Origin: a virus
Direction: 5' to 3' (one strand)
IMG/VR virus record: IMGVR_UViG_3300029288_006769
Location: 314,367-378,366 of that record
Length of the DNA stretch: 64,000 nucleotides
Both the position numbers and the translations under genes were made by a program. The notes below the pieces were generated by a model, which ran no database searches, was not told where the DNA came from, and was given only the letters and a program-made list of their open reading frames with translations. The stretch's first letter is position 1, and every line of letters starts with the position of its first letter. Positions 7,889-40,025 of this stretch are shown piece after piece.

Positions 7889-7962
7889 ATTAGCTCCTTA
7901 AATCTTTTTACATCATTTTCAAAATCAAAGTTGTCTGCATCTAAGACATAAACTTGCAGTGA

Positions 7963-8000: not shown

Positions 8001-8045
8001 ACGGTCAAACTTACTAGATTTCATCGACTAAAATTAGGAGTAAAA

Positions 8046-10304
8046 ATGGCTTATAAAGAACGAGCTTTAACTTCTGAATTAAAAAGTGATGTAAGTAGTT
8101 TAGCAAGTTACTTATTGAGTTCTGCCGATACCGTAAGAGTTACTTCAAATTTAACTGTTACAGAGAACTTAATAATACCTGCATCCTGTTCTTTTATGTT
8201 TTTTAATGGTGCAAAACTTGTACATAGTTCTTACACAATTACTTTTACCGGGTCCATTATAGGAGATCCAACATGGAAGATATTTGACGGTACTGGTACT
8301 GTCACCTTCAATGTTGGCTCTGTCCCTCATGTAAGACCGGAATGGTGGGGCGTAACACAAGGTGTTGATTGTACTGCGTCTGTTCAAAAAGCAATAGATT
8401 CTGTTTCAAGTGGTGGTATTGTTCTTTTATCAGCTGCTAGTTATGTAATTAATGGCCCTCTGACAAATAATACAGGTGCAATAATTCTAAATTATAGTTC
8501 AGTAAATCTTTTCAATCTTTTACCTGCAAGTTCATTTAGTAGAGAAATGCAATTTGGCGGCTCTTTTGTAGCGGGTACAGGTTCGTTCATAGAAAGTGCC
8601 TCTATTCCTCGATTATCAAATTTTACTTCTAATGGAGTACTTAAAACAACTGGCGCAAATGGAACTTTAACGGTAGATACAGTTGGAGTTTTTGGACCTA
8701 CTGGCATTCAAGGTGAAACAGGAATTCAGGGCATCCAGGGTGAAACAGGATTACCAGGCCTTGGTGGCACAGGTTTACAAGGTCCTCAAGGTGATACTGG
8801 AATTCAAGGAATACAGGGAGCCACAGGAATAGGAGCCGAAATATCTGGTCATAGTAGTTTAACTGATATGCCTGATTTAACAGGTGTTGTAGCTGATCAT
8901 GATACAAGACTTGTAACAAAAGTTCAAGACATAACTCCCACAGTGCCTGCACCTTTTGCAGGTATGCTATGGTATGACACTTTAGCAACAGGAAGTGAAC
9001 AAGGTTATACTGGGCCACAAGGTCTTACTGGAATTCAAGGTATCCAAGGTGAAACAGGGTTGCCAGGTATTGGTGGTACAGGTTTACAAGGTCCTCAAGG
9101 TGATACAGGTATTCAAGGCTTGCAAGGTGAAACTGGGCCTGCCGGTTTAGGAACAACAGGTATTCAAGGTGAAACTGGGCCTGCTGGTTTAGGAACAACG
9201 GGGATCCAAGGTGAAACTGGGCCTGCTGGTTTAGGAACAACGGGGATCCAAGGTGAAACTGGGCCTGCTGGTTTAGGAACAACAGGGATTCAAGGTGAAA
9301 CTGGATTACAAGGAAGCACGGGATTACAAGGTTTAGGTGAGACTGGATTACAAGGCATTCAAGGAAACACAGGAATACAAGGAAATACAGGTGCACAAGG
9401 TTTAGGTGAGACTGGGTTACAAGGTGTTCAAGGAAATACCGGCATTCAAGGAAACACAGGAATACAAGGAAACACAGGTTCACAAGGTTTGGGTGAAACA
9501 GGATTACAAGGCATTCAAGGTGAAACTGGAATACAAGGAAATACAGGTGCACAAGGTTTGGGTGAGACTGGATTACAAGGTGTTCAAGGAAATACCGGGA
9601 TACAAGGTGAAACTGGAATACAAGGAGACACAGGTTCACAAGGTCTAGGTGAGACTGGACTACAAGGTGTTCAAGGTGAGACTGGATTACAAGGAAATCA
9701 GGGCGAAACTGGAATTCAAGGCAATACTGGATTGCAGGGCGCGACTGGACTCCAGGGATTAATTGGAATTCAAGGTGATACAGGTCTTGGAATACAAGGT
9801 GAGACTGGTGCAGGAATTCAGGGTGAGACTGGCCTTCAAGGAATTCAAGGCGATACAGGCCTTGGAATTCAAGGTGATACTGGTGCAGGAATACAAGGTG
9901 AGACTGGGCTTCAAGGAATTCAAGGTGATACAGGTCTTGGAATACAAGGCACAACTGGTGCAGGGATTCAAGGTGAGACTGGGCTTCAAGGAATTCAAGG
10001 TGATACAGGCCTTGGAATTCAAGGTGATACTGGCGCAGGGATTCAAGGTGAAACTGGCCTTCAAGGAGCTCAAGGCGAGACTGGAATTCAAGGTGAAACA
10101 GGCTTAGGTCTTCAGGGTGAAACTGGCCTTCAAGGTTCTCAAGGTCAAACTGGGCCAGAAGGTGGACCTCAGGGAACTACAGGTCTACAGGGACCACAAG
10201 GATTAACAGGTATACAGGGTGCTGCTAACATTTTGTCTGGTACTGATGATCCACCTGATCCATCAGGATATCCTGATGATACTTTATATTTTCAATATGT
10301 TTAA
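8046..10304 (+). CDS. Collagen-like fibre protein 1
   Basis: AGGAG RBS before ATG 8046; tailspike-like N-terminus (VRPEWWG...DCTASVQKAID); long G-x-T-G-x-Q repeat; ends PDDTLYFQYV. Confidence 0.85.
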   Translation: MAYKERALTSELKSDVSSLASYLLSSADTVRVTSNLTVTENLIIPASCSFMFFNGAKLVHSSYTITFTGSIIGDPTWKIFDGTGTVTFNVGSVPHVRPEWWGVTQGVDCTASVQKAIDSVSSGGIVLLSAASYVINGPLTNNTGAIILNYSSVNLFNLLPASSFSREMQFGGSFVAGTGSFIESASIPRLSNFTSNGVLKTTGANGTLTVDTVGVFGPTGIQGETGIQGIQGETGLPGLGGTGLQGPQGDTGIQGIQGATGIGAEISGHSSLTDMPDLTGVVADHDTRLVTKVQDITPTVPAPFAGMLWYDTLATGSEQGYTGPQGLTGIQGIQGETGLPGIGGTGLQGPQGDTGIQGLQGETGPAGLGTTGIQGETGPAGLGTTGIQGETGPAGLGTTGIQGETGPAGLGTTGIQGETGLQGSTGLQGLGETGLQGIQGNTGIQGNTGAQGLGETGLQGVQGNTGIQGNTGIQGNTGSQGLGETGLQGIQGETGIQGNTGAQGLGETGLQGVQGNTGIQGETGIQGDTGSQGLGETGLQGVQGETGLQGNQGETGIQGNTGLQGATGLQGLIGIQGDTGLGIQGETGAGIQGETGLQGIQGDTGLGIQGDTGAGIQGETGLQGIQGDTGLGIQGTTGAGIQGETGLQGIQGDTGLGIQGDTGAGIQGETGLQGAQGETGIQGETGLGLQGETGLQGSQGQTGPEGGPQGTTGLQGPQGLTGIQGAANILSGTDDPPDPSGYPDDTLYFQYV
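9124..9303 (+). repeat. Near-exact 42-nt in-frame tandem repeat (x4)
   Basis: caaggtgaaactgggcctgctggtttaggaacaac... encoding QGETGPAGLGTTGI. Confidence 0.8.
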
Positions 10305-10312
10305 GGACTATT

Positions 10313-11524
10313 ATGATAGCTTTTAAAAAAAATGGAGAAGCATGGTCTTGGGGGTACAATGGTTATGGTGGGCTTGGTGTAAATGATACACAAAACAAAA
10401 GTTCACCCGTACAAATAGTAGGCAATCATAGCTTTATTTTTGTAATGTCTGGATTTGCTCAATCATACTTTATTAAATCTGATAATAATGTATGGTGTTG
10501 TGGAAATGGTCAATATATGGGAGCAGGTAATACGTCTGATTATTCGTCACCTGTTGTACTAATTGGTAACCATCAATTCATTAAAATATCAACATCTTAT
10601 AGCTATAGTGCAGGTACAATAACAACTGTAGGTCTTAAGTCAAATGGAGAAGCGTGGTCTTGGGGATATAATGGTATCGGACAACTTGGCACGGGAAATA
10701 CTACTAGTACATCTTCACCAGTAAAAGTTATTGGTAACCACAGTTTTATTTATGTACATTCAGGTCATCAATATTTGGGTCTAAGTTCAACATTTGGCAT
10801 TAAGTCAAATGGAGAAGCATGGTGTTGGGGATGCAATAGTTATGGTGCACTTGGTGTAAATGATACACAAAACAGAAGTTCGCCCATACAAATAGCAGGC
10901 AATCATAGCTTTATTTTAATTAAATCTGGTTTTTATTTTGCAATGGGTCTTAAATCAAATGGAGAAGCATGGTCTTGGGGATTTAACGGTACTGGACAAC
11001 TTGGTACAGGAGATACTACTAGAACATCTTCACCAGTAAAAGTTATTGGCGATCACAGTTTCATTTTTATAGATGTATCTCAAAGTTCGTCTTTGGGTCT
11101 TAAATCAAATGGAGAAGTATGGTCTTGGGGACAGAATGCCTATGGACAACTTGGCACGGGAAATACTGCTAGTACATCTTCACCAGTAAAAGTTATTGGT
11201 AACCACAGTTTTATTTCAATTAAGGCATTTGAAACTTCATCTTTGGGTCTTAAGTCAAATGGAGAAATATGGTCTTGGGGATATAACTACTATGGACAAC
11301 TTGGCATAGGAAATACTTCTAATGCATCTTCACCAGTAAAAGTTATTGGTAATCACAGTTTTATTTCGATTAATACTGGAATGAATATCAGAATTTTAGA
11401 TAATTCTTCTTGGCATCAAAGACCTATAGGTTTTATTCGTAAATCAGGAGCTTGGAGAAGGTTAATTGACATATACATTAAAAAAGATAGTGTCTGGAAA
11501 ACAACTGATAGACTGCATAAATAA
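10313..11524 (+). CDS. RCC1-repeat beta-propeller protein 1
   Basis: Seven LKSNGEAWSWGYN.GQLG...SSPV.VIGNHSF repeats plus Trp-containing C-terminal tail. Confidence 0.9.
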   Translation: MIAFKKNGEAWSWGYNGYGGLGVNDTQNKSSPVQIVGNHSFIFVMSGFAQSYFIKSDNNVWCCGNGQYMGAGNTSDYSSPVVLIGNHQFIKISTSYSYSAGTITTVGLKSNGEAWSWGYNGIGQLGTGNTTSTSSPVKVIGNHSFIYVHSGHQYLGLSSTFGIKSNGEAWCWGCNSYGALGVNDTQNRSSPIQIAGNHSFILIKSGFYFAMGLKSNGEAWSWGFNGTGQLGTGDTTRTSSPVKVIGDHSFIFIDVSQSSSLGLKSNGEVWSWGQNAYGQLGTGNTASTSSPVKVIGNHSFISIKAFETSSLGLKSNGEIWSWGYNYYGQLGIGNTSNASSPVKVIGNHSFISINTGMNIRILDNSSWHQRPIGFIRKSGAWRRLIDIYIKKDSVWKTTDRLHK

Positions 11525-11591
11525 AAAAGATAGCATCTGGACATGCAACTCTATAATGTTTTGATGATCAGTGTCTAAATTTGGAGGATAA

Positions 11592-14243
11592 ATGCCACTT
11601 TTAAAAATTTTTGATGGTGCAGACTGGCAAATTGTTGGACGAGGCGTCCAAGGTGATACAGGTGCTCAAGGTTTGCAAGGTGCTACAGGTCTTCAAGGAA
11701 TTCAAGGGCAAACTGGTGTAAGAGGAGAAACTGGAGCACAAGGTAACACTGGCGTTACAGGAAGAACTGGACTTCGAGGCGCTACAGGCCCACAAGGTCA
11801 AGGTAATACAGGACTTCAAGGACAAACAGGAGTAAAAGGACAAACAGGAATACAGGGTCCAACAGGCCTTAAAGGTGCTACAGGCTCTCAAGGCGATACT
11901 GGCTATCAAGGCATACAGGGTGATACAGGAGTTGCTGGACCTCAAGGTGATACAGGAGTCCAAGGTGCAACTGGACCTTTAGGAGGGCCCCAGGGAGCTA
12001 CTGGCTTACAAGGCACTCAAGGTGATACTGGTTTAGAAGGAACTACTGGATTACAAGGTTTGCAAGGTGAAACTGGTTTTCAAGGCCAAACCGGTGCCCA
12101 AGGATTACAGGGAGAAACAGGATTACAGGGAGAAACTGGGTTACAGGGTACACAGGGATCAACTGGTTTCCAAGGCCAGACTGGTATAACAGGTGATCAG
12201 GGTCAAACTGGCGATCAAGGTGCTACTGGCCTTCAAGGCTCAACAGGTTTTCAAGGACTGACAGGCTCGCAAGGCAACACAGGAGCTCAAGGCTTTACGG
12301 GTTTGGGAGCACAAGGAGATACTGGATTACAAGGTCTTCAAGGCGAAACAGGAACTCAAGGCATTCAAGGCGACACTGGATTAAGTTTGCAAGGCGAAAC
12401 GGGTCTTCAAGGTATTCAAGGCGAGACTGGCCTGGAAGGTTCTCAAGGACAGACAGGTTTACAAGGACTTGGCGAAACAGGACTTCAAGGCGAAACAGGT
12501 TTAGAAGGTACTCAAGGTGTTACTGGATTACAAGGTATCCAAGGAAATACTGGATTACAAGGTATCCAAGGAAATACTGGATTACAAGGCGAAACTGGAT
12601 TAGGACTTCAAGGAGAGACAGGTTTACAGGGTGTTCAAGGTAACACTGGATCACAAGGTACTCAGGGTAATACTGGAGTTCAAGGTCTTGGTGAAACAGG
12701 TTTACAAGGTGAAACAGGAATACAAGGTAACCAGGGTAACACAGGAGCTCAAGGCCTTCAGGGAAACACTGGATTAAGTTTGCAAGGTGAAACAGGTCTT
12801 CAAGGTATCCAAGGCGAAACAGGCTCTCAAGGTATTCAAGGACAGACAGGTGTTCAAGGTGAAACTGGCTTACAAGGTACTCAAGGAAACACAGGCATAC
12901 AAGGAAGCCAGGGCGATACCGGTGTTCAAGGAACGCAAGGAAATACTGGATTGAATGGTGAAACAGGCCTTCCGGGTTCACAAGGTGAGACAGGATTAGA
13001 AGGCGTACAAGGTAATACAGGACCTCAGGGACTTGGCGAAACAGGTCTTCAAGGTATAACAGGCTTGCAGGGCTCTCAGGGCGATACAGGGTTGCAGGGC
13101 TCTCAGGGCGATACAGGGTTGCAGGGTCAAACTGGATCTCAAGGAATTCAGGGCAATACAGGATTACAGGGTGAGACAGGGTTACAAGGATCGCAGGGTG
13201 ATACAGGAGCCCAAGGTTTGGGTGAAACAGGTCTTCAGGGTTTCCAAGGACAAACAGGTATCCAAGGCGATACAGGAGCTCAAGGTTTACAAGGAGATAC
13301 TGGTCTACAAGGAAGTCAAGGCAATACTGGTATCCAAGGGTTACAAGGAAATACTGGTTTAAGTGGTGAAACAGGTCTTCAAGGTGCTCAAGGTGATACA
13401 GGAGCACAAGGAATTCAAGGTGATACAGGAGCACAAGGAATTCAAGGTCAAACAGGAGCACAAGGAATTCAAGGTCAAACAGGAGCACAAGGAATTCAAG
13501 GCAATACAGGATTGCAAGGGCAAACAGGTATTGATGGTATTCAAGGACAAACAGGACTTCAAGGTCTTGGCGAAACAGGTCTTCAGGGTCTACAGGGTAT
13601 CCAAGGCGATACAGGAGCTCAAGGATTACAAGGAATAACGGGCCTTCAAGGTCAGACTGGTTTGCAAAGTCCACAAGGTGATACAGGGTTACAAGGTCAT
13701 ACTGGTACTCAGGGGGTTCAAGGAAGTACAGGTCTTCAAGGTGCTCAAGGTGATACTGGCACACAAGGGATACAAGGTCAAACTGGGCCTCAAGGTTTAG
13801 GTGAAACAGGCCTACAAGGAATGACGGGTTTGCAGGGCTCTCAGGGCAACACTGGAGCACAAGGCATTCAAGGAAATACTGGATTACAGGGTACTACTGG
13901 TTTACAAGGTTCTCAAGGCGATACTGGTATTCAAGGAAATACAGGTGCTCAAGGGCTTGGTGAAACAGGATTACAAGGCGAAACCGGTTTGCAAGGTGAA
14001 ACAGGTCCTTCAGGTGGTCCTCAGGGAGCCACAGGTTTGCAAGGTGAAACTGGTGTTCAAGGTATTCAGGGAGTAACTGGCGTAGGTACTGGAGGTTCAG
14101 ATCCAACATTCAATTCTGTAACTATAACAGGTAATCTAAATGGTACTACAGGCATGGCTGCTCCAGTTTTATATGGTACTGGAAATCCACCATCTACTGC
14201 AGGTATCCCTTATGGAGCTATTTATTATCAATATGTGAACTAA
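11592..14243 (+). CDS. Collagen-like fibre protein 2
   Basis: GGAGG RBS; almost entirely GETGLQ-type triplets; ends GAIYYQYVN. Confidence 0.9.
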
Positions 14244-14263
14244 GAAATACGAGGCAAGAGTAA

Positions 14264-15499
14264 ATGTTTGGTAAAAGCGGGAATATAGCTTATAAGTCAG
14301 ATGGTAGTGTATGGTCTTGGGGTCAAAACAGTTGTGGCCAGTTGGGTGATAATGGTAGTGGTTATGTTAGGTCATCTCCTGTTCTGGTAGTGGGTGATCA
14401 TAAATTTTATTTGATAAGTGCTGGAAGAACTAATACTGTTTATCTTAAACAAGATGGCAGTGCTTGGTGCAATGGAATTGGAAATGGTATAGGAGATGAT
14501 ACAACTGATCAGAAAAATTCACCTGTAGCAGTTATAGGAAACCATTCCTTTGTAGATATTGACAGCGAATGGGGATTTTGTATGGCCCTCAAATCTAATG
14601 GCGAAGCTTGGGGTTGGGGATATAACATTAGAGGTAATTTAGGTAATAATTCTACCACACATACATCTTCTCCTGTACAAGTAGTAGGTAATCATTCTTT
14701 CATAAAAGTACAATGTGCGGGTGACAGTAATGCTAATGGTGAATCCGCAGGAGCATTGAAAGCAGATGGATCGTTATGGGGATGGGGAATGAATGCTTAT
14801 GGATCTTTAGGAAATGGAGACAGTAGTAATAAAAGCTCTCCAGTAGTGGTGGTAGGGAACCATTCTTTTATTGATTTTGCTATATCTCCTTGTTCCAGAT
14901 ATGGTTTGAAAGCTAATGGTGAAGTTTGGAGCTGGGGTGCTAATTATGCTGGTCAATTAGGAACAGGAAATACAACAAGTTATACATCTCCAGTATTGGT
15001 GATAGGAAATCATTCTTTTATAAAAATTGCATTGTCGCTTTATTCTAATAGGTCTGATTCAGTCGGATGTGCTGGATTGAAAAGTGATGGTACAGTTTGG
15101 ACATGGGGAAATTGGTGGACAATGGGTAATAATTCTATCACAGCTACATCTTCTCCTGTTTCTATAGTTGGAGATCACTCTTTTGTAGATATCACTGGAG
15201 GAGCAGAAACCGGGTTTTTCTCAGGGTTAAAATCAAATGGAGAGATATGGTCTTGGGGTGTCAATTCATATGGACAACTAGGTGATCTTAGTTTAACAAA
15301 TAGAAGTTCACCAGTGCTATTAGCAGGTAATCACTCTTTTATTTCTTTGCACACAGGTATGAACATGAATTTAGATGTGTCGGGTTCTTGGAAGAGAAAC
15401 CCTATTATACATGTGAACGTCGAAGGAACTTGGAAAAGAATAATAAGACAGAAAATGAATATAAACGGTACTTGGACATCACCTATACATCCAGATTAA
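14264..15499 (+). CDS. RCC1-repeat beta-propeller protein 2
   Basis: Seven RCC1 repeats; tail VNVEGTWKR...INGTW. Confidence 0.9.
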   Translation: MFGKSGNIAYKSDGSVWSWGQNSCGQLGDNGSGYVRSSPVLVVGDHKFYLISAGRTNTVYLKQDGSAWCNGIGNGIGDDTTDQKNSPVAVIGNHSFVDIDSEWGFCMALKSNGEAWGWGYNIRGNLGNNSTTHTSSPVQVVGNHSFIKVQCAGDSNANGESAGALKADGSLWGWGMNAYGSLGNGDSSNKSSPVVVVGNHSFIDFAISPCSRYGLKANGEVWSWGANYAGQLGTGNTTSYTSPVLVIGNHSFIKIALSLYSNRSDSVGCAGLKSDGTVWTWGNWWTMGNNSITATSSPVSIVGDHSFVDITGGAETGFFSGLKSNGEIWSWGVNSYGQLGDLSLTNRSSPVLLAGNHSFISLHTGMNMNLDVSGSWKRNPIIHVNVEGTWKRIIRQKMNINGTWTSPIHPD

Positions 15500-15568
15500 T
15501 TATATACTTGCATTTAAAACTTTTTTAACTTGTAGCAAATTAAAATTATAAAATTCGCTTTAGGAGCT

Positions 15569-15736
15569 ATGAAATTTATGTCTTTGCCTATAAGAGACAC
15601 ACCTATTTTGGCAGGAGAAGATGCAAGAAAATTTATCAAAAACATGCAGAATCCAAAACCGGTTCCTCGTAAAGAATATGAGCGAGCAAAAAAGATTTAT
15701 GAAGAATTGAAAGCAAAAGGAAAACTAGATATTTAG
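15569..15736 (+). CDS. Small protein, possibly antitoxin-like (55 aa)
   Basis: Hand-translated MKFMSLPIRDTPILAGEDARKFIKNMQNPK...; AGGAG RBS. Confidence 0.5.
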   Translation: MKFMSLPIRDTPILAGEDARKFIKNMQNPKPVPRKEYERAKKIYEELKAKGKLDI

Positions 15737-15745
15737 GAGAATTAG

Positions 15746-17293
15746 ATGCAGTCTTTAAGTCTTGCTATAATAATGAAAGACGTAGAAAAAACTTTACAAA
15801 AATGCTTAGATTCTGCTGCTCCTGTTGTTGATGAAATTATAGTAGTAGATACTGGTTCCACAGATAGATCAAAAGAAATTGCATTACAATATACTTCTAA
15901 AGTTTATGATTTCCCCTGGATAGATGACTTTTCTGCTGCTCGAAATTTTTCTTTTGATTTATGCACAAAAGAGTATATATTTTGGATTGATGCTGATGAT
16001 GAAATTCTTAAAAAAGATCAAGAGAAAATAAAAAATCTTGATTTATCTGACAAAGAAATAGTGTTATGTCAGTATCAATATTCTCATGATCAGTTTGGTG
16101 TTCCCGAATGCACTCTTGAGCGAGAAAGAATTATTAAACGTTCTCTTGGGCTTAAATGGGAAAAACCCATTCATGAATATTTGCCCATTTCTGGAAAAAA
16201 AATTTCTAGACAAGATATTGAAATACATCATTGGAAACAACATGGTACATCAGAAAGAAATTTGAAGATATTAGAAAGAATTATTCAAAAAGATCCTGAT
16301 TCTAGAAATTTCTATTATCTCGGAAAAGAATATGCCGATTTTGGAAGATTTGAAGAAGCTATTGAAACTCTTGAAAAATTTGTTACTATGAAAGGCTGGT
16401 GGGAAGACGTATTCTGTGCTCATGATACTATTGCTAAATGTTATCTTGTTCTTAAAAATGAAAAAAAGTTTTTTGAGAATATTTTTCGTTCAATAGAGAT
16501 AGAGCCCAGAAGAGCTGAACCATACTTTGAACTTGGTGATTATTACTTCTCAAAAAACGATTGGGGAAAAGCTGCTCATTATTTTGATATTTGCCTGAAT
16601 GTAAAAAGACCCAAAGAATTAATGTCAACATATTATCCTCAAAATTATACATGGCGACCAGCACTCATGGCAACACAAGCTTATAATAATTTAGGTGCTG
16701 TGCAGACAGCTTTTGAACGTAGTAAATTGTTTTTAAAATACAGGCCAAATGACCAATTAGCTATAAACAATTACAATTGCCTGTTGAATAGTTCTTTACG
16801 TTTTGTCAAGAAAGATGGACAAAGCAAGAAGCTTAATCTAGGTTGTGGAAATAAAAGAATTGAAGGTTATATAAATGTTGATATAGTCAAGATACCCGAA
16901 GTTGATGAAGTTTTTAATTTCTATGAAATACCTTATCAAGATAATACGATTTCAACTATTTCAAGCGAACATGCATTAGAGCATGTATCAGCTGACAAAG
17001 CAAAACAAGCTATAAAAGAATGGTTTAGAGTTCTTGAGCCTGGTGGTAAATTAGAGCTCTATATTCCCGATCTTGAGTTATGTGCTAAGGGTTATGTAGA
17101 AGGCGACAATAGTCGTACTATTAATGGGTTTAAAGAAAAAAATTGGTATAAAATGACTTTGTATGGCGCACAAAGACCCGAGAATGGAAGTGATGCTGAA
17201 CATCAATTTCATTTAAATGGTTTTTCAAAAGATGAAATCAAAGAATTACTTGAAGAAGCAGGGTTCATAATAACTCATCTAAGGAATTACTGA
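15746..17293 (+). CDS. GT2 + TPR + class I SAM methyltransferase (piece 1 of split glycosyltransferase)
   Basis: VDTGSTD, DFSAARNFS, WIDADD, IHE; TPRs; LNLGCG...HALEH...RVLEPGG. Confidence 0.85.
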   Translation: MQSLSLAIIMKDVEKTLQKCLDSAAPVVDEIIVVDTGSTDRSKEIALQYTSKVYDFPWIDDFSAARNFSFDLCTKEYIFWIDADDEILKKDQEKIKNLDLSDKEIVLCQYQYSHDQFGVPECTLERERIIKRSLGLKWEKPIHEYLPISGKKISRQDIEIHHWKQHGTSERNLKILERIIQKDPDSRNFYYLGKEYADFGRFEEAIETLEKFVTMKGWWEDVFCAHDTIAKCYLVLKNEKKFFENIFRSIEIEPRRAEPYFELGDYYFSKNDWGKAAHYFDICLNVKRPKELMSTYYPQNYTWRPALMATQAYNNLGAVQTAFERSKLFLKYRPNDQLAINNYNCLLNSSLRFVKKDGQSKKLNLGCGNKRIEGYINVDIVKIPEVDEVFNFYEIPYQDNTISTISSEHALEHVSADKAKQAIKEWFRVLEPGGKLELYIPDLELCAKGYVEGDNSRTINGFKEKNWYKMTLYGAQRPENGSDAEHQFHLNGFSKDEIKELLEEAGFIITHLRNY

Positions 17294-17499
17294 TGTCAGA
17301 CAGAACAACATGTTTAACCGTCGTCCTTGACAATGATTTTCGTATTGATGACATAGACAGCATTCTAAATGCAATTAGAATGATTAAAGGTGTTGCAGAA
17401 GTTAAAGCAAATGTTTCTAACCCTGAAGAATTTACTGCTTATATAAGAGCAAAAATGAGTCTTGAGAAAAAATTATGGGAAGCATTGAAAGATGAATAG
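17293..17499 (+). CDS. Small phage protein inserted in glycosyltransferase locus
   Basis: TGATG overlap at start; stop overlaps next ATG. Confidence 0.7.
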   Translation: MSDRTTCLTVVLDNDFRIDDIDSILNAIRMIKGVAEVKANVSNPEEFTAYIRAKMSLEKKLWEALKDE

Positions 17500-17929
17500 T
17501 TATGGTACTCCTTCAATTGAAATTAGAGCAATAAAACCAGTTTGTCCTTTGAGGATAGGCTGGATTATGACCGAGTATAACGAGACAGCTGCCCAAACAC
17601 GTATAAGAGTAATTAATGTTTGCATAGCATTAAAAGTAATGGGATATATGTCAAATTTTGCGACATATCAAAATATTCTTGACAAAAAATATGATATCGC
17701 AATAGTTGGAAAAGCTTTTAGTGAAAATGATTATAATAGCATCAAGTTATTAAAGCAACATGGAAAAACTGTTTACTGTGATTTATGTGAAGATATAATT
17801 GGATGGCCTTGGGTAAATGAAATCTTAAGTTTGTGTGACAAAGTCATTTGTTGTTCATATATGTTGCAAGAAAAAGTTAAACCAGTCAACCCGAACACAT
17901 TTGTTATAGAAGATGCTTTTGAAGTTTAA
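17492..17929 (+). CDS. Last MTase strand + GT-B N-terminal half (piece 2)
   Basis: NSYGTPSIEIRAIKP, then RIGWI...AQTRIRV...DLCED...DKVICCS..LQE...VIEDA. Confidence 0.65.
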   Translation: MNSYGTPSIEIRAIKPVCPLRIGWIMTEYNETAAQTRIRVINVCIALKVMGYMSNFATYQNILDKKYDIAIVGKAFSENDYNSIKLLKQHGKTVYCDLCEDIIGWPWVNEILSLCDKVICCSYMLQEKVKPVNPNTFVIEDAFEV

Positions 17930-18222
17930 TGTCTATACGTACGCAATTAATTGAAGGATTTTCTCAGATTGAAAAATATAATCAGCAAGTTGTTTCTGTT
18001 TTCATAAGCTCAGCTACATTTGAAGCAATAAAGAAAGAGAATATAAACGAATTTTTATTCAATAAAGAAGGATCAAAATCTCTTGGAACTATTTATGGAG
18101 CAAAAGTTTATTTGAATGAAACTGATAATATTGAATTTAGATCAAGTACAAGAATCATTCTAATCCCATCAGAAGTAAAACTTGAGCGTAATAAAAAATT
18201 CAAATTTATAATGGAGGCATAA
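17929..18222 (+). CDS. Stand-alone major capsid A-domain-like protein
   Basis: LIEGFSQIEKYNQQVVSVFIS...GTIYGAKV aligns with MCP LADAFAEVEKHDLRVARLFMN...AQIWGADI. Confidence 0.55.
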   Translation: MSIRTQLIEGFSQIEKYNQQVVSVFISSATFEAIKKENINEFLFNKEGSKSLGTIYGAKVYLNETDNIEFRSSTRIILIPSEVKLERNKKFKFIMEA

Positions 18223-18914
18223 TGAATAATAAAGAAGTATTTGTAGAAAAGCTGAATGAATGTGGTGAAGTCAAGTACGAAATGACAGAAATTCATAGCA
18301 GAATTTTGAGCAAACTAAAAACTGTATATCAACTTGTTTTTCAACGCGAGAAAAAAGATTTTCTTTCACTCAAGAATATGCAATATTTCAAACAGGGTAT
18401 TGCTTCTCCTGATGCTCGACCGAGATTACATGAAGTTCTTGATGTTTTTGTAAACCTTGCAAATCATTATAATTTCCTTGGTGATGACGAACTCAAAGAA
18501 TATCTTGATTCTAGAGGCATCACATTTACTATTACAAGACCAATGCTTGAAGATGGAGCTGTTTCTGTTTCGAAAGAAGAAACAAAAGAATTTGAAAGAT
18601 CTTGGAAATTTGCAATGGCAAATGAAGCTATTCCTGGGACAAAAAAAGAGATTCTCAATGCTATTCTAGATAAAGCGATCAGTGTACAAAAAGCGATCGA
18701 AAACAAAAAAGAAGAAATAGACAAAAAAGCTCAAGATGTTGATCTTGAATGCCAGGTCAAAAAACCTTTCTTTTTTAAAGCCCTTACTATCAAAATTGCT
18801 GAAATGAAAAAACGCTCAGTAGATAATCAAATCAAAAAAGTAGAAGATGATATTGAAGCATCAAAAGACATAATTTCGATTTTTGATAAAGCTGAAGAAA
18901 AAACTGAAGAATGA
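18222..18914 (+). CDS. Helical/coiled-coil hypothetical protein
   Basis: GGAGG RBS, TAATG coupling. Confidence 0.6.
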   Translation: MNNKEVFVEKLNECGEVKYEMTEIHSRILSKLKTVYQLVFQREKKDFLSLKNMQYFKQGIASPDARPRLHEVLDVFVNLANHYNFLGDDELKEYLDSRGITFTITRPMLEDGAVSVSKEETKEFERSWKFAMANEAIPGTKKEILNAILDKAISVQKAIENKKEEIDKKAQDVDLECQVKKPFFFKALTIKIAEMKKRSVDNQIKKVEDDIEASKDIISIFDKAEEKTEE

Positions 18915-18955
18915 GCAAATCTGTTTAAATGTCATAACATAGGCAAAGTAAGATT

Positions 18956-19561
18956 ATGAAACAAAAACATATTGTAATCAATAAAGAGGGACCAAAAATA
19001 TTACCAGATTCTATACAAGCGAAAATTCACCCAGAGATTTCAAATACGAATTGTTGGATATTGTCAAATAGTACAAGAAAACATCCGGGACATTATGCTG
19101 TAAAACAATGGGTTTTATGTTATGGTCAAATGCCTAAAAATTTAAATGTTTTACATAAATGCGATAATGTCAACGGGCCTTGTGTTAATCCAGAACACTT
19201 ATTTTTAGGAACGCCTTCTGAGAACTTAAAAGATTGTATAATAAAAAATAGATTTAGAAACGGGTGTACAAGTAGTACCGCTAAGAAAGCTTGGTTAACA
19301 AGATTAAAAAATGGGAATATAGATAATTTCATAAGTTCGTCAGAAAAAGCAAAAAAAGCAGTAGAAACAAAAAAGAAAAACGGAATAAAACTTGGTTTAA
19401 CTTCTGAACAAGCAAAGAAAAGTTGGGACACAAAAAGGAAAAAAGGCGAAGGTAATGGCGAAAAATTTGTTAGTGCTGCTAAAAAAGGATGGTTAACTAG
19501 AAGAAAAAATGGCAATGGTCATAAATTTGGAAATCAACACACAAAGGCAAATAAATGTTAA
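18956..19561 (+). CDS. HNH homing endonuclease with basic C-terminal repeats
   Basis: VLHKCDN...CVNPEHLFLGT..EN..D; repeated AKKxWxTRxK. Confidence 0.85.
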   Translation: MKQKHIVINKEGPKILPDSIQAKIHPEISNTNCWILSNSTRKHPGHYAVKQWVLCYGQMPKNLNVLHKCDNVNGPCVNPEHLFLGTPSENLKDCIIKNRFRNGCTSSTAKKAWLTRLKNGNIDNFISSSEKAKKAVETKKKNGIKLGLTSEQAKKSWDTKRKKGEGNGEKFVSAAKKGWLTRRKNGNGHKFGNQHTKANKC

Positions 19562-20763
19562 TCTATTGGGAAGGATATGGGGGAACAAAATATTTAGCTG
19601 AAAATTTGCGGCCTTTAATTGAACAATTAAATTGCAAACTTATAACAATGAGTGAATGGGAAGATTCAGATATTATTTGGGATTTATCGACATGGTTGCA
19701 AGAATTAAAAAAAGCAGATGTCGTAATTATTCCTTGCAACTACTTGGTTCAAAATGCTAAATCAAATAATAGACTTACGCAAATGATGAGTTTAGGAAAA
19801 CCCTGCATTGTTAATCCTTTACCTGCATATCTTAAAATAATCGAAGAAAATCCAGGTTGTGCTCTAATTGCTACAACAGAAGAAGATTGGAAAAAACATA
19901 TTGAATATTTAAAAGATAGCGAACATAGAAATCAATTATCACAAAAAGCTTTAATAGCAGCTCAAAAATACTCAATCAAGAATATAGCTCAAAAATGGAT
20001 TGACATATTTGAAAATAAAAAAGAAGACATTAAAAATGATGTAATAATCCCTACATATAATAATGTCGAATATTTGAGATTATGTCTAGATTCTCTTAAA
20101 AGAAATTCTGCTTTTAAAAACAGGATAATCATTTCAGATGCTGGTAGCAATGCAACGACCTGGGAATATTATAAGACTATTAATAATGTCGAGATTCTTG
20201 GTACCCAAGACGTACGACTAAATTTTTCACAGGCTTGTAATGCTGGGATACAAAATTCTTCATCTGATTATTTTGTACTCCTAAATTCTGACACTATAGT
20301 TTCTAAAAATTGGGATGTGAATCTTGTAAGTAAATTACAAGCAGATCCTCAATTAGCCATGTGCGGTGTTCTATCTAATTGTGATCGTTTTTGGTTGCAT
20401 GGTGTACCTGGCAAGCCAGTGTATCCAATGAGTATACCTGGTTTAGAACTTGTCCCTGGAATGAAAGCGAGTCAGTTAGAGGGCAAACTAGACAGCCTAT
20501 ATAGTTTTATGGACAATTCAAATAAATCACACCAAGGGACTCTCGTTGAACAAGAATGGGTAGCGTTTTATTGTACTATGTTTAATAGAAAAAAATTTAA
20601 TGAAATTGGTCTTTTGGATATTACTTTCAACAATGGATGCGAAGATTTAGATTTTTGTATTAGAACAAAAAAAATGAATTATAAAATAGCTCAAGCTATA
20701 GATTGTTTTGTTTTTCACTTTGGGGGCATTTCACGGGGGAGTTACGAAAAAGAGTTTTTATGA
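19555..20763 (+). CDS. GT-B C-terminal half + GT2 domain (piece 3)
   Basis: YWEGYGG...KSNNRL..MSLGKP; VIIPTYN, LLNSD, GCEDLDFC, FVFHFGG. Confidence 0.8.
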   Translation: MLIYWEGYGGTKYLAENLRPLIEQLNCKLITMSEWEDSDIIWDLSTWLQELKKADVVIIPCNYLVQNAKSNNRLTQMMSLGKPCIVNPLPAYLKIIEENPGCALIATTEEDWKKHIEYLKDSEHRNQLSQKALIAAQKYSIKNIAQKWIDIFENKKEDIKNDVIIPTYNNVEYLRLCLDSLKRNSAFKNRIIISDAGSNATTWEYYKTINNVEILGTQDVRLNFSQACNAGIQNSSSDYFVLLNSDTIVSKNWDVNLVSKLQADPQLAMCGVLSNCDRFWLHGVPGKPVYPMSIPGLELVPGMKASQLEGKLDSLYSFMDNSNKSHQGTLVEQEWVAFYCTMFNRKKFNEIGLLDITFNNGCEDLDFCIRTKKMNYKIAQAIDCFVFHFGGISRGSYEKEFL

Positions 20764-21341
20764 AACAAATCCAACTCTACTTATCCTTAAAAAAGCCATT
20801 GTTATCTGATAAATTCACAATCATAGATGATGATATTTATGAATTGTTTAAAAACACAAAATTAAAACTTAGTTCACTTGCTGATAATAGAAAGTTCTAT
20901 GTAGAAACACCTAATAAAAACTTCAAAGTATTCCATAGAGAAATATTAAATGCAAAAAAGAATGAAGTTGTTGATCATATTAATGGATTAACATTGGATA
21001 ATAGAAGAGAAAATTTAAGAATTTGCAATATACAACAAAATTCATGGAATAGAGGTATTGATATAGATAACAAATTAGGTTATAAAGGAGTTACTGCTGT
21101 AAAAAACAAATTTTATGCAAGAATAGGAAAAGGAGTTTTTTACAATCTTGGAACTTTCAAAACTGCAGAAGAAGCTGCTCGAGCCTATGATATTGCAGCC
21201 TTACGTCTATTTGGACAATATGCATTTACTAATTTTCCTAAAGAAGATTATTCAAATCTAAAAAAATTTGAGGCTATAATAAATGTAAAAAGAAGATTTG
21301 TTTGTAAAAACCAGTTGCCAAAGACACAATATGTCCAATAG
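20760..21341 (+). CDS. HNH-AP2 homing endonuclease
   Basis: HREIL...VVDHINGLTLDNRRENLR...N; AP2 YKGV...LGTFKTAEEAARAYD. Confidence 0.9.
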   Translation: MKQIQLYLSLKKPLLSDKFTIIDDDIYELFKNTKLKLSSLADNRKFYVETPNKNFKVFHREILNAKKNEVVDHINGLTLDNRRENLRICNIQQNSWNRGIDIDNKLGYKGVTAVKNKFYARIGKGVFYNLGTFKTAEEAARAYDIAALRLFGQYAFTNFPKEDYSNLKKFEAIINVKRRFVCKNQLPKTQYVQ

Positions 21342-22464
21342 ATATAAAGAAGAAGACACATCAAATCATAAATATTTAGAAGAAAAATGGAGTAAAAAAA
21401 CCATAGTATTTTTTTCTGGACCTAGTTGGGAAAAATGGGATCATAGAAATGTTGATCAAAATGGGATAGGAGGAAGTGAAACTTGGCAAGTAATGATTTC
21501 TAGAGAACTATCAAAACTTGGTTATAGAGTTATAAATTTTAATGATTGTCAGGAAGAAATAGATGATGGGCTCGTAAAATATTTCCCATATTCCCGATTA
21601 CATAATTTCATTGAATACAATTATGTTGATTATTTTATTAGTTCAAGAACGACAGAGCCTTTTAGACTTAAAATACGTTCAAATAAAAAAATTGTTATTT
21701 GCCACGACATCTGGTTATCAAGTCAAAATCAAGTTGCTTACCAAGAAAAAGTCGATAAATTCTTAGTTTTGTCTGAATGGCATAAAAATTTTGTGCATCA
21801 ACATCATGGTATATCTTTAGACAAATTAATCATGACTTCTAATGGTGTCGACTTGAAAAGATTTGAAAAACAGATTGAGCGTCATCCTTATAGACTTATG
21901 TATTCTTCTTCATTAGATAGAGGGCTTGATGTACTTCTCTATCTTTTTGATTTTATCAAGGTTAATGTGCCAGAACTTGAACTTCATATTTTTTATGGGT
22001 TAGATAATTGGATAAAAAGTGCTCAGCATCGCCCAGGTGAAAAAGAAAAAATTGAAGCTATACAAAAAGCAATGAATAAACCTGACGTATTTTATCATGG
22101 ACGCGTAGGACAAGATCAATTAGCTGAAGAGTGGTTAAAGTCTTCTTTATGGGCGTACCCAACTGATTTTGAGGAGACGAACTGCATCACTGCTATAGAA
22201 GCTCAAGCTGCTGGTCTACCTGTGCTCGCTACTAATTATGCTGGACTCAGAACTACAGTTGGAAATTCTGGTATTTTATTGGGTAATGGGAATAAAGGTG
22301 AAGCTAATACAAGAGAATTTAGAATTGAATTTGCTTCAAAATGTATTAGTCTTTTGAAAGATAGAGCGCTTTGGAAGGAATGGTCAGAAAAAAGTTTAGA
22401 AAATGCAAAAAAATATTCATGGGCCAATATAGCAAAACAATGGGTTGAGCAAATCTTATGTTGA
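21331..22464 (+). CDS. GT2 terminal helix + GT4-family glycosyltransferase (piece 4)
   Basis: GIGGSE, YSSSLDRGL, YPTDFEETNCITAIEAQAAG. Confidence 0.85.
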   Translation: MSNRYKEEDTSNHKYLEEKWSKKTIVFFSGPSWEKWDHRNVDQNGIGGSETWQVMISRELSKLGYRVINFNDCQEEIDDGLVKYFPYSRLHNFIEYNYVDYFISSRTTEPFRLKIRSNKKIVICHDIWLSSQNQVAYQEKVDKFLVLSEWHKNFVHQHHGISLDKLIMTSNGVDLKRFEKQIERHPYRLMYSSSLDRGLDVLLYLFDFIKVNVPELELHIFYGLDNWIKSAQHRPGEKEKIEAIQKAMNKPDVFYHGRVGQDQLAEEWLKSSLWAYPTDFEETNCITAIEAQAAGLPVLATNYAGLRTTVGNSGILLGNGNKGEANTREFRIEFASKCISLLKDRALWKEWSEKSLENAKKYSWANIAKQWVEQILC

Positions 22465-23042
22465 CAAGAAAAGACATTCCTGAATTTCTAAACCAAAAAG
22501 AACTTATAGGTTATGGTGCCGAAATTGGTGTCTTGCGTGGTGAATTTTCAAAACACATATTAGAAAAATGGAAGGGTAAAAAGCTTTATTTAATTGATTC
22601 TTGGCGATATTCAAAAGACATTGTTGATTTGAACAATTTTGAATTTAAAGAACAACTCGAAAATTATTCGAAAACTTTTTCTAATATTTATAGTTTTGGT
22701 GATAGAGCAACAATCATAAGAGAGTTCTCAAGAGAAGCCTCAAGATTGTTTCCTGATAATTATTTTGATTTTGTGTTTTTAGATGCAAGACATGATTTTG
22801 AGAATGTAACAATAGATTTAGAATCATGGTATCCTAAAGTGAAACCTGATGGTTATTTGATGGGCCATGATTATTTAGATAATATAACAAAGGTTGGTGG
22901 TGATATAGTTTTTAGTACAAAATTTGAAGTTAAATCCGCTGTAGATATTTTTGCTTTTGTAAGGAATTTAGAAGTTTATGTAATCGAAGACAAAAGCGAT
23001 CCGTTTTATCCATCTTGGTATATCAAGAAACTTACTGCTTGA
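22458..23042 (+). CDS. Class I SAM methyltransferase (Methyltransf_24-like)
   Basis: GAEIGV..GEFS, DFVFLDARH, KVKPDGYLMGHDY. Confidence 0.85.
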   Translation: MLTRKDIPEFLNQKELIGYGAEIGVLRGEFSKHILEKWKGKKLYLIDSWRYSKDIVDLNNFEFKEQLENYSKTFSNIYSFGDRATIIREFSREASRLFPDNYFDFVFLDARHDFENVTIDLESWYPKVKPDGYLMGHDYLDNITKVGGDIVFSTKFEVKSAVDIFAFVRNLEVYVIEDKSDPFYPSWYIKKLTA

Positions 23043-24666
23043 ATCTTTCAAGAACTTTTTCAATTACTTCTTCTTCTGTCGGTAAATAAAAATCCCAATT
23101 TTGTTTTATAAGTTCTGCTGTCGCTCCACCTTCAATCCATGTTGTAGGTCTTTGATCGCAATCATCAAGTGTAAGTTTCTTATATAGAGCATCAGCTTTA
23201 TGATAAGGCGTAATATAACCTTCGGATGTTTTTCTAAAAGGTAATACATGATCTGGATGTTTGCATGTTGGCATTATTATGATCCAATTGTCGAATGCCC
23301 CAGCTAAATGTATTGGAACAGAATCATTAGATAATAAAACAGGTGCTCTTGAGATAGCTGAAATTAGAACACCAACAGATGTTCTGTCTATGAGACTGAT
23401 AGAATTAGAAGGAAGTTCAAGTTGATATGCGCCTCGATTTTCATGATCATCTGTTCCAATTAAACATACAGGAATTTCTTTAGAGATACCATCTACAACT
23501 TTTTGCCACCATTCGATAGGAAATGTTTTGCTTTCCCAATGTCTTCCTGGATGAACAATTACAGCTTTTCTAAGATCAAAACCTTTAAGTATTTCATCTA
23601 ATTCATCATCATCTTCTTTTGTTGTTTGTATTTTGATAATTTTTTCTTGTAGGGGTAATACTCTTTGTAGAGAAGCAATAGAACAATAATCTACTGTATG
23701 ACAGAGTAAATTCGAAATAATAGAATAAACTACTGTTTTTGGATCTGGGAAAGTTTTTATTTGAAAAAAGGGTTGAAAAATCGAAGGGTTGAAATCATCA
23801 TGATGTATTATTTTATATTTCAAATGCTTGAAAAGCCTTGGCCAATGTGTTGTAATAATTATTTCTGTTGTATTATCTTTGTAGACTTTTTCAAGAAATC
23901 TTAATGTCGGTTCAGCATCTACTTGATCGCCCATTCCCCCAGAAACCACAATAACTATATTTCGTTTATAATTATATTCGGGTTTGTCGTTTTCCCATTT
24001 TTCAAGATCTCCCTTAATTATTGATAAAATCTCATTATTTACTGTAAAATAATGATAACCAGCATAATGTATAATAAATGAACTATGTCTTGTTTCTCCA
24101 CAAAAATCCAGACATGTCATTCGGTTAAGTTTGTATGGTAAATCATACATGAGTGAATTTTCTTCTTTTCTTTTACCTTCTTCAATTGCGAATTTTAAAT
24201 TGAGATACCCTTGTTCATAAAAGTTTGAAATTTCTTTTTCAGGTTTTTTAAAAAAGAATTTATGACACTTTGAAATAACTAAAACACCAGTATTATAATA
24301 TTTTCCATTCCAGTTTATTTTCTCAGGGTTAATATCATAACTCTTGCAAGCTTCAATTAATGAGTACTCTCTTGGTACAAATTTAGCTTCGTTGAAAGCA
24401 CCTATTTTGTTATAAGGCACTATATCAAAAAGATCAGGACAATCATCTCTTACGATTAAATCCGTATCAAGATAAATTATTCTATCATAAGAATTCAAAA
24501 GATCGAATATTTGGAATTTTTCCCAATGTGGAGTCGTTTTGCATGAATCAATAACTATAAAATCAGCATTGATTTTTTTCGCGTATGATTGTAGAGTTGG
24601 ATGCGTAAGTTTTGAGATATTTTTAATCTCATCCCCGATAGAAATAGCAATAAGAGCTTTTTTCAT
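23032..24666 (-). CDS. GT8-like + GT9-like fused glycosyltransferase
   Basis: YLDTD, YNTGV, EQGYLN, IIHYAG; GGMGD, VHPG..W.SK, SNDSVPIHLAGA. Confidence 0.8.
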   Translation of the reverse strand: MKKALIAISIGDEIKNISKLTHPTLQSYAKKINADFIVIDSCKTTPHWEKFQIFDLLNSYDRIIYLDTDLIVRDDCPDLFDIVPYNKIGAFNEAKFVPREYSLIEACKSYDINPEKINWNGKYYNTGVLVISKCHKFFFKKPEKEISNFYEQGYLNLKFAIEEGKRKEENSLMYDLPYKLNRMTCLDFCGETRHSSFIIHYAGYHYFTVNNEILSIIKGDLEKWENDKPEYNYKRNIVIVVSGGMGDQVDAEPTLRFLEKVYKDNTTEIIITTHWPRLFKHLKYKIIHHDDFNPSIFQPFFQIKTFPDPKTVVYSIISNLLCHTVDYCSIASLQRVLPLQEKIIKIQTTKEDDDELDEILKGFDLRKAVIVHPGRHWESKTFPIEWWQKVVDGISKEIPVCLIGTDDHENRGAYQLELPSNSISLIDRTSVGVLISAISRAPVLLSNDSVPIHLAGAFDNWIIIMPTCKHPDHVLPFRKTSEGYITPYHKADALYKKLTLDDCDQRPTTWIEGGATAELIKQNWDFYLPTEEEVIEKVLERFKQ

Positions 24667-25586: not shown

Positions 25587-26822
25587 TTAGGTATACATCG
25601 CAGAATTATTTGTCCATACTCCACTTTGTTTTTGATAAATATTGACAACTCTTCTCCAATTCCCAGAAATATTTACGAAATAAGCAGGCCATCTTCTCCA
25701 TGTTTCAGTTACACAAACAGGAATTCTTGATGCTCCTGATCCTATAAATAAGAAAGAATGTGCCCCAACAACTTGCACAGGAGAAGAATATGATGTTGCA
25801 TTATTTGTTCCTAATCTCCCTTGCGAATTTGAACCCCATGCCCAAATTGAACCATCAGCTTTCATAGCATGCGTAAAATTATTGCCTATAGCAAAATGTA
25901 TAAAACTATGTGCACCAACTACTTGTACAGGAGACGATCTATTTGTTCTTGTACCATCACCTAATTGTCCATAGACATTGTTGCCCCACATCCACAATGA
26001 ACCATTGGATTTCAAACCAGCACATGCACCCTCAGTTTGTTCATTAGTCATACCTGCAGCAACATGTATAAAAGAATGACCCCCTATTACTGTAACTGGT
26101 GATGATCTAGTTGTCACAGTTCCATCACCTAAATTTCCACTACCATTATATCCCCATGTCCATGCAGCACCAGTTTCTTTAAGTGCTATAGACAGACCAT
26201 TATCTGCTCCACCTGTAGCTATTTGAATAAAACTATGACTTCCTACAACTTGTACTGGAGAAAAAATCCAGTTTACTGCATTATTGCCTAATTGTCCTGA
26301 CTGACCATTTCCCCAGCACCATACTTGTCCATTATTTTTAAGAGCTGCAGTATGTGCAGCACTACAATGCACTCTAATAAAAGAATGATTTCCAACAACT
26401 TGTACTGGAGAACTGTAAGACACTTGATTGTTTGTACCTAATTGTCCATAACCATTATGACCACAACCCCACATTTGACCATTGTCTTTTAAACCCAAAA
26501 AATTGTAAGTTCCCTCAGCTATTGAAATAAAAGAATGATTTCCAACAACTTGTACTGGAGAAGAGTAAGACGCACTATTAGCGTTGTTACCTATTTGTCC
26601 ATAAATATTTGCGCCCCAACCCCATGCTTCTCCATTAGATTTCAATGCATGTGTGGCTTGATTAGAAGCTGTTAACATAATAAAAGAATGATTACCCACT
26701 ACTTGTACGGGTGACGATCTGGTAGTCAATGTATTGTCGCCAAGGCCACCTGCACCATTAAATCCCCATAACCAACAAGCCCCATTTAATTTTACTGCAT
26801 AGCCTTTATTATTATCAGACAT
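25587..26822 (-). CDS. RCC1-repeat beta-propeller protein 3
   Basis: Seven RCC1 repeats; tail VNISGNWRR...QSGVW. Confidence 0.9.
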   Translation of the reverse strand: MSDNNKGYAVKLNGACWLWGFNGAGGLGDNTLTTRSSPVQVVGNHSFIMLTASNQATHALKSNGEAWGWGANIYGQIGNNANSASYSSPVQVVGNHSFISIAEGTYNFLGLKDNGQMWGCGHNGYGQLGTNNQVSYSSPVQVVGNHSFIRVHCSAAHTAALKNNGQVWCWGNGQSGQLGNNAVNWIFSPVQVVGSHSFIQIATGGADNGLSIALKETGAAWTWGYNGSGNLGDGTVTTRSSPVTVIGGHSFIHVAAGMTNEQTEGACAGLKSNGSLWMWGNNVYGQLGDGTRTNRSSPVQVVGAHSFIHFAIGNNFTHAMKADGSIWAWGSNSQGRLGTNNATSYSSPVQVVGAHSFLFIGSGASRIPVCVTETWRRWPAYFVNISGNWRRVVNIYQKQSGVWTNNSAMYT

Positions 26823-40023: not shown

Positions 40024-40025
40024 AT

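Follow-up and report, generated by a model that had tools for sequence, protein, structure and literature searches.

A free-standing capsid A-domain gene in a megaphage genome

A 64,000-nucleotide stretch of viral DNA (positions 314,367 to 378,366 of the IMG/VR record IMGVR_UViG_3300029288_006769; hereafter, the window) was analyzed with respect to P0001, a small open reading frame (ORF) of 97 amino acids (aa) that an earlier note on this DNA had described as a stand-alone copy of the A-domain from the major capsid protein (MCP). The ORF was confirmed to exist as claimed, with its ATG at position 17929. It lies within a plus-strand block (7959-23042) that adjoins structural genes and overlaps both of its neighbors, in that its ATG overlaps the stop codon of the upstream gene (TAATG) and its own stop codon overlaps the ATG of the downstream gene. 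The capsid peptides quoted in the earlier note were located in P0002, an HK97-type MCP encoded on the minus strand at a distance of 18 kb from P0001 (Table 1). P0002 matched phrog_2522 (E = 2e-67), scored above the cut-off of the Pfam Phage_capsid model, and shared 48% identity with gp27 of Bacillus phage G. These matches identify P0002 as a genuine major head protein of the HK97 type, and the source element, a single record of 424,144 bp that is approximately 98% complete and carries 39 tRNA genes and a tmRNA gene, is therefore a phage-G-like megaphage.

Homology of P0001 to the major capsid protein

The ungapped alignment between P0001 and the MCP described previously was reproduced by BLASTP over 33 residues with 27% identity (P0001 4-36 versus MCP 164-196), and the two proteins were shown to be reciprocal best non-self BLASTP matches among the 109 ORFs of the window (E = 0.005 and 0.014). 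The Smith-Waterman score of 55 for this pair was reached by none of 2000 shuffles. Taken alone, the pairwise match would be marginal if any ORF pair could have been chosen; the homology is nevertheless solid because family profiles add to it. A four-member P0001 profile aligned to a 25-member MCP profile with an hhalign probability of 95% (P = 2e-8), and a five-member profile with 96% (P = 3e-9), P0001 4-64 being placed in register with MCP 164-228. The second motif on which the original comparison was based, IYGA in P0001 and IWGA in the MCP, also fell in register in the hhalign alignment, and the P0001 family and the MCP were further found to have in common an invariant Glu in the first helix and an aromatic-Gly-Ala strand motif. 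The real family scored 52-61 in these alignments, versus at most 19.5 for 60 column-shuffled controls, 19 for the reversed profile, and 12-16 for five unrelated neighbor families aligned to the MCP.

When the 3951 ORFs of the genome were searched with a hidden Markov model (HMM) of the P0001 family, the MCP was the top non-family match (E = 2.6e-4), and a phmmer search of the genome with the MCP returned P0001 and its paralogue P0005 as the two best non-self matches. Among PDB sequences, the family profile matched phage G gp27 (6WKK) with an E-value of 5e-4; a topoisomerase II segment scored equally in this search, and thus sequence alone was insufficient at that level. The latter match, to the topoisomerase II ATPase (E = 4e-4), was judged to be due to chance, as no GHKL fold appeared in any of the fold searches. 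P0001 remained below match level with the Pfam capsid models, and gave no match to the major-capsid models PF05065 and PF25209.

Predicted structure of P0001

A model of P0001 built with AlphaFold2 (AF2) on a four-sequence alignment displayed a predicted local distance difference test (pLDDT) value of 82 and a predicted template modeling (pTM) score of 0.72, with the five models ranging from 76 to 82 in pLDDT. Residues 85-97, which form the C-terminal tail, had pLDDT values below 50 and looked disordered. The fold searches with this model all gave HK97 A-domains, although the E-values from Foldseek were weak owing to the short query. Its neighbors in ESM-Atlas were all capsid clusters (TM-score 0.63-0.69, root-mean-square deviation of about 2.2 Å over 80-84 residues) and included PF25209, the MCP's own Pfam family, and T4 gp24 (PDB ID: 1YUE) and SaPIbov5 Ccm (PDB ID: 7RWZ) were also among the fold matches. 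The model exhibited the layout of an A-domain, in which a helix-strand-helix arrangement is followed by a beta-sheet, and was superposable on the A-domains of solved capsids. A lack of structural resemblance to the MCP A-domain, which the earlier note had named as the finding that would refute it, was thus not observed.

The alignments covered the A-domain range only in every capsid chain matched, and P0001 lacks the N-arm, E-loop, spine helix, and P-domain, in agreement with the earlier statement that the rest of the HK97 fold is absent. Because the N-arm, E-loop, and P-domain are gone, P0001 cannot be a subunit of a shell or lattice. We concluded from these profile and fold comparisons that P0001 originated from its lineage's own MCP as a copy of the axial (A) domain that has been exapted, corresponding roughly to MCP residues 164-250. 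Further small uncharacterized phage proteins, several of them from jumbo phages, matched the P0001 model weakly in BFVD, and free A-domain proteins may be wider spread than the literature searched shows.

Family members and evolutionary behavior

When 1.8 billion representatives were searched exhaustively with phmmer, only two relatives of P0001 were retrieved, the metagenome orthologues P0003 (51% identity) and P0004 (38%). A word-index search, tblastn against deposited phages, and scanning of viral and metagenome contigs for sequence patterns added no others. The family as analyzed here consisted of five members, namely P0001, these two orthologues, the dispersed paralogue P0005, and a tandem paralogue in the locus L003, which is directly upstream of P0004 and has an HNH endonuclease gene just before it. 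The reading frame was intact in three lineages and two paralogues, down to 33% identity, and 12-16 columns were invariant across the family. Because of this intact frame, these invariant columns, and the confidently predicted fold, P0001 is a real gene under selection.

In comparison of the window with the related loci L002 and L003, the identity of P0001 was 49% and 33%, respectively, versus 74% and 61% for the upstream neighbor P0127, 83% and 70% for the downstream neighbor P0128, 65-75% and 63-67% for the glycosyltransferase (GT) halves around them, and 75% and 69% for a GT8/GT9 gene. The MCP family comprised more than 1300 relatives at E ≤ 1e-10, many of them with more than 90% identity, versus two for the P0001 family. 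P0001 is therefore characterized as a fast-evolving and dispensable accessory gene, yet one that is selected.

In the same window, residues 75-144 of the minus-strand ORF P0126 were in register with the P0001 family and with MCP 165-195. The hhalign P-value against the P0001 family was 0.004-0.018 for this single sequence (0.004 with five members) and the genome-wide HMM E-value was 0.008; the genome may thus encode in P0126 a third protein of the A-domain-like kind, more divergent than the others. A 315-aa ORF (genome 137714-138658; phmmer E = 0.006) was rejected because the similarity is short and local, the protein is rich in Cys and Lys, and the match disappeared when the family HMM was used (E = 8.7).

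The C-terminal tail

The P0001 family was shown to be most conserved at its extreme C-terminus, which reads K-F-K-F-[IVL]-x-E. A strict tail motif, defined as KF[KR][FW][ILVM] within 8 residues of the C-terminus, was present in 7 ORFs of the genome versus 0.61 in shuffles (maximum 3 in 100 shuffles), and 7 of the 11 genome-wide occurrences of the strict motif were C-terminal; the reversed motif gave 0. Five other carriers of the tail have unrelated bodies, including Cys-rich zinc-ribbon-like proteins and a multi-pass membrane protein, and align to the P0001 family at the tail only. For the ORFs that surround the tail carriers at 36-40 kb, a Pfam search yielded nothing informative. The KFKF tail looks like a short linear docking or targeting motif shared by these proteins.

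The glycosyltransferase cassette around P0001

The block harboring P0001 begins with collagen-like and RCC1 proteins, which are plausible fiber proteins and glycosylation substrates, and continues with a 515-aa GT composed of GT2, tetratricopeptide repeat (TPR), and methyltransferase parts, a 68-aa ORF, P0127, P0001, and P0128, followed by an HNH endonuclease, a 402-aa GT, an HNH-AP2 endonuclease, a 388-aa GT1, and a methyltransferase, after which a GT8/GT9 gene lies on the opposite strand. Most relatives have P0127 joined as a fusion to the C-terminal end of the GT2-TPR-methyltransferase (650-690 aa; 649 aa in P0138), and one relative has the P0127 part joined to the large GT without intervening genes (P0171, 916 aa). 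The BLAST coordinates demonstrated seamless junctions in the fused relatives (P0138, P0171, and the 775-777-aa GTs of L002 and L003), and the plus-strand region 15746-22464 of the window corresponds to one giant multi-domain glycosyltransferase, GT2-TPR-methyltransferase-GT-B-GT2-GT1, in four pieces. Because the fused relatives join both sides seamlessly, P0001 and P0128, here together with the HNH gene, sit at the hinge where the two Rossmann halves of the GT-B enzyme meet.

In L002 and L003, the gene order was P0127-like, P0001-like, P0128-like, an intact 775-777-aa GT2+GT1, methyltransferase, and GT8/GT9. The gene for the GT-B half was directly upstream of P0001 in two of the three loci, and the P0001 gene was inside the GT cassette in all three. 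The GGAGG ribosome site of P0128 lies inside the last codons of P0001, the downstream overlap is 1-4 nucleotides across the loci, and P0128 is predicted to be co-transcribed with, and translationally coupled to, the P0001 orthologue in each of the three loci (window, L002, and L003). No terminators were found in 15000-23500. A self-splicing intron around P0001 and the HNH gene was rejected, as Rfam models matched nothing in that interval at E up to 1.

A split MCP, in which P0128 would supply the rest of the HK97 fold, was also rejected, as the P0128 family scored 13.7 against the MCP and 13.4 against the P0173 family (see below) in hhalign. The AF2 model of P0128 was unusable (pLDDT 43, all-helical), and a complex prediction of P0127 and P0128 with P0001, run without controls, gave a score of 0.00 that carries no weight either way. 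The P0128 homologue in LR756500.1 (Table 1) adjoins a divergently transcribed ORF that resembles sugar-transferase-type enzymes by eye. Outside the window, ARAGORN detected a tRNA whose CTA anticodon would decode the stop codon TAG; recoding was not evident in the window, where the ORFs are long under table 11.

Table 1. Positions of P0001, related capsid-derived genes, and surrounding features. Positions refer to the window unless a locus (L) or the genome (C1) is named.
Feature	Position	Strand	Remarks
P0001, 97 aa, free-standing HK97 A-domain-like	17929-18222	+	ATG 17929, stop 18220-18222
P0001 A-domain core, residues 1-84	17929-18180	+	helix 3-15, strand 23-26, helix 28-37, five strands
P0001 C-terminal tail, residues 85-97	18181-18219	+	K-F-K-F-hydrophobic; family-invariant columns K90, F91, K92, F93, E96
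P0002, MCP, 292 aa, parent lineage of P0001	35941-36819	-	phrog_2522, Pfam, gp27 identity
MCP residues 164-228, aligning to P0001 4-64	36136-36330	-	BLASTP and hhalign
P0005, 118 aa, full-length P0001 paralogue	L006 4273-4626 = C1:178272-178625	-	same tail
Tandem paralogue, 127 aa	L003 5605-5988	+	same KFKF tail; 35% identity to P0004, E = 1e-11
P0126, 168 aa	3452-3958	-	
Two long collagen-like proteins	7959-10304, 11592-14243	+	G-x-T-rich
Three RCC1-repeat beta-propeller proteins	10313-11524, 14264-15499, 25587-26822	+, +, -	
GT2-TPR-methyltransferase, 515 aa	15746-17293	+	TPR region at residues ~169-290
68-aa ORF	17293-17499	+	separates 515-aa GT part from P0127
P0127, 145 aa, N-terminal Rossmann half of GT-B glycosyltransferase	17492-17929	+	Atlas TM 0.73-0.78
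P0128, 230 aa, no known family	18222-18914	+	
HNH endonuclease ORF	18956-19561	+	this phage only; in variable slot with P0001 and P0128
C-terminal GT-B half and GT2 domain	19555-20763	+	front half of 775-aa GT intact in relatives
HNH-AP2 ORF	20703-21341	+	splits 775-aa GT
P0173, 249 aa, MCP-derived without A-domain	L011 8092-8838	+	
P0174, 249 aa, MCP-derived without A-domain	L010 8072-8818	+	
89-aa ORF, tentative N-arm match	L010 10022-10291	+	
Tail-bearing ORFs unrelated to P0001	C1:36268-36546, 38278-38694, 39304-39582, 39911-40387	+	loci L014, L015 (together with the ORF of the next row)
Tail-bearing ORF, multi-pass membrane protein	C1:411346-411864	-	
P0128 distant homologue	L007 (LR756500.1) 6001-6699	+	
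tRNA, anticodon CTA	C1:1278-1350		ARAGORN

Other capsid pieces in the variable slot

The contents of the hinge slot varied among the relatives of the cassette. The slot was empty in L008, held one 170-aa ORF in L012 and small ORFs including collagen-like minis in L009 and L013, and accommodated a longer gene set in L010 and L011, small collagen-like ORFs thus being present in L009, L010, L011, and L013. No P0001-like ORF was found among the slot ORFs of L008-L013, and those of L008, L009, L012, and L013 resembled neither the P0001 family nor the MCP (scores 8-13).

In L011 and L010, the first gene after that of the GT2-TPR-methyltransferase, in the same slot as P0001, encodes P0173 and P0174, respectively. 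Residues 70-171 of these proteins match MCP 5-99 (BLASTP E = 5e-8), residues 214-247 match MCP 246-279 (E = 8e-4), and hhalign gave a probability of 97% against the MCP. P0173 retains the N-arm/E-loop region and the C-terminal strands, and is devoid of the A-domain because only about 40 residues replace MCP 100-245; both proteins bear an additional N-terminal part of approximately 70 residues. The relatives of P0173 in deposited phages and in the present genome were MCPs only. Judging from the alignments, P0173 and P0174 are roughly complementary to the capsid piece in P0001. The slot of L010 further contains an 89-aa ORF, residues 5-35 of which share 42% identity with residues 6-36 of the MCP N-arm (31 residues), including the invariant M-x-N-P-L-R motif; with an hhalign probability of 68% from a single sequence, this N-arm match is tentative.

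Possible roles of P0001

We tentatively propose, as a possibility falling well short of an even chance, that P0001 is a molecular-mimicry accessory of the protein-glycosylation cassette. TPR domains classically bind C-terminal peptides, as in the Hop-Hsp90 (EEVD) and PEX5-PTS1 pairs. The tail of P0001 would act as a short docking peptide at the C-terminus, for which the neighboring glycosyltransferase's TPR domain is the most plausible reader, and the body would present or bind the capsomer-forming surface of the A-domain. Because the tail would dock on the enzyme and the body would show the A-domain surface, P0001 could serve either as an adaptor bringing the enzyme to the capsid surface or as a capsid-like client or pseudo-substrate of the enzyme. 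Like other cargo of the variable slot, it would be dispensable and fast-evolving. In favor of this proposal are the constant gene order in the three loci, the position at the GT-B hinge, the MCP-derived proteins found at that position in L010 and L011, the invariant tail that recurs on unrelated proteins, and the TPR domain of the adjacent enzyme.

Several observations weigh against this proposal. The candidacy of the TPR region (residues ~169-290 of the 515-aa GT) as the tail receptor is drawn from general TPR biology, and the five other tail carriers are encoded far from the cassette. P0005 sits between tRNA-Thr and tRNA-Cys in a tRNA array with no glycosylation genes nearby, and a distant homologue of P0128 (27% identity) in L007, a 462-kb uncultured phage, has no P0001-like gene alongside. 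P0001 evolves much faster than its cassette neighbors, unlike what would be expected of an obligate enzyme partner. The slot also takes HNH endonucleases and ORFs without known relatives (ORFans), and co-location may only mark a hot-spot tolerant of insertions. In addition, the relatives were covered as neighborhoods of about 14 kb, and the MCP fragments in the slot may not be enriched there relative to the remainder of those genomes.

A second reading, which we consider somewhat unlikely, is that P0001 acts as an immune decoy or antagonist, the free A-domain binding, blocking, or diverting sensors of unassembled capsid protein, while through the shared tail it might be tied to one common effector of the phage or host. 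Avs7, Avs8, and Avs10 were reported to bind the A-domain at its penton/hexon-forming interface (bioRxiv 10.64898/2026.01.04.697583, 2026 preprint), and this capsomer-forming face is the very part that P0001 keeps. The fast evolution of P0001 relative to its neighbors, its tandem and dispersed duplication, and its patchy presence among close relatives of the cassette are consistent with such a role, as is the occurrence of different MCP pieces as separate mini-genes in related phages, which would be expected if they mimicked different epitopes. However, the literature searched offered no precedent for a capsid-mimic decoy, and a faithful mimic of the trigger might activate the sensor rather than block it. 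P0001 would also have to compete with the most abundant late protein, despite the weakness of its own ribosome site, and its position in a long operon beside structural genes likewise speaks against a decoy. As to the earlier note, the stand-alone A-domain incapable of forming a shell stood up to the profile and AF2 analyses, while the roles attached to it, a decoy, an inhibitor of rival assembly, or a capsomer plug, were neither shown nor excluded.

A broader version, unlikely in our estimation, would regard P0001 as part of a megaphage toolkit of cut-down MCP pieces, comprising the A-domain only, the A-domain-less P0173 and P0174, and possibly the N-arm, which mimic unassembled capsid and antagonize host sensors, the KFKF tail serving as a shared handle that would connect them, along with further small effectors, to one phage-encoded hub such as the giant glycosyltransferase's TPR domain.

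P0001 might alternatively modulate assembly or be a minor part of the virion, its free A-domain binding the A-domains of the MCP so as to cap or chaperone it, tune the very large shell, plug or decorate the centers of capsomers, or poison the assembly of a competitor. P0001 retains the two helices and core sheet that make intracapsomer contacts in HK97-fold shells (for the role of the helices, see PMC8346489) and derives from the phage's own MCP lineage, phage G gp27 being the only capsid match in the PDB sequence search; moreover, full-length MCP paralogues with special roles are known in T4 gp24 and SaPIbov5 Ccm. We nonetheless regard this role as distinctly unlikely, given that P0001 is far from the head module, that it is absent from many relatives with near-identical MCPs (more than 1300 MCP relatives versus two), and that its rapid divergence beside a highly conserved MCP argues against a tight, co-evolving contact between the two.

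It is improbable that P0001 is an enzyme-associated chaperone or scaffold akin to the Family 4 'A-domain encapsulins', one that would oligomerize and stabilize or organize the neighboring enzymes in a manner unrelated to the capsid. P0001 has about 100 aa, consists of the A-domain only, and in two of the three loci directly follows the gene for a GT-B half, which may correspond to the operon pattern described for DUF1884 proteins. Nevertheless, the four P0001-family members gave no match to PF08967 at E up to 10, nor did P0001 alone at E up to 1; its sequence affinity is to the phage's own MCP, its paralogue P0005 is outside any enzyme operon, and it is far less conserved than the enzymes.

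Finally, a functionless passenger, that is, a decaying piece of a duplicated MCP carried into the hot-spot by homing-endonuclease traffic, would fit the HNH genes that border or break into the slot in both this genome and L003, the highly variable slot content, and the low conservation of P0001, but is very improbable in view of a frame that three lineages and two paralogues have preserved at 33-49% identity, gene boundaries that match a structural domain, a fold predicted confidently from only four sequences, and the invariant tail motif.

Comparison with known systems

P0001 would illustrate how a virus puts one domain of its shell protein to use outside the shell. As Avs-type sensors reportedly grip the A-domain surface, whether phages employ capsid mimicry to manage such sensors or capsid-modifying enzymes becomes a testable question, and the shared tail may represent a targeting signal of huge phages that has escaped notice until now. 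Phage-encoded mini-capsid A-domain proteins appear to be undescribed.

The Family 4 'A-domain encapsulins' (DUF1884/PF08967) are A-domain-only proteins of about 100 aa found in two-component operons with enzymes, have been reported only from thermophilic Euryarchaeota and Bacteroidetes, and have no known function (Andreas and Giessen, 2021, PMC8346489). P0001 resembles them, as represented by Pyrococcus furiosus PF0899 (PDB ID: 2PK8), in being an A-domain of approximately 100 aa alone. In contrast, it is encoded by a phage and detectably derived from a phage-G-type MCP, 2PK8 was not among the matches of the P0001 profile in PDB sequences, its conserved C-terminal tail is common to unrelated proteins, and its neighbors are glycosyltransferases instead of hydrogenase, OsmC, GAPDH, and DeoC.

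With phage G gp27 (6WKK) and the MCP of its own genome, P0001 shares a homologous A-domain core, as recognized by both sequence profile and fold, whereas it has one third of their length and none of their N-arm, E-loop, spine helix, or P-domain. The T4 vertex protein gp24 (1YUE) and SaPIbov5 Ccm (7RWZ) are comparable to P0001 as second capsid-derived genes within one genome; these proteins, however, retain the complete HK97 fold and become incorporated into shells, whereas P0001 consists of one domain.

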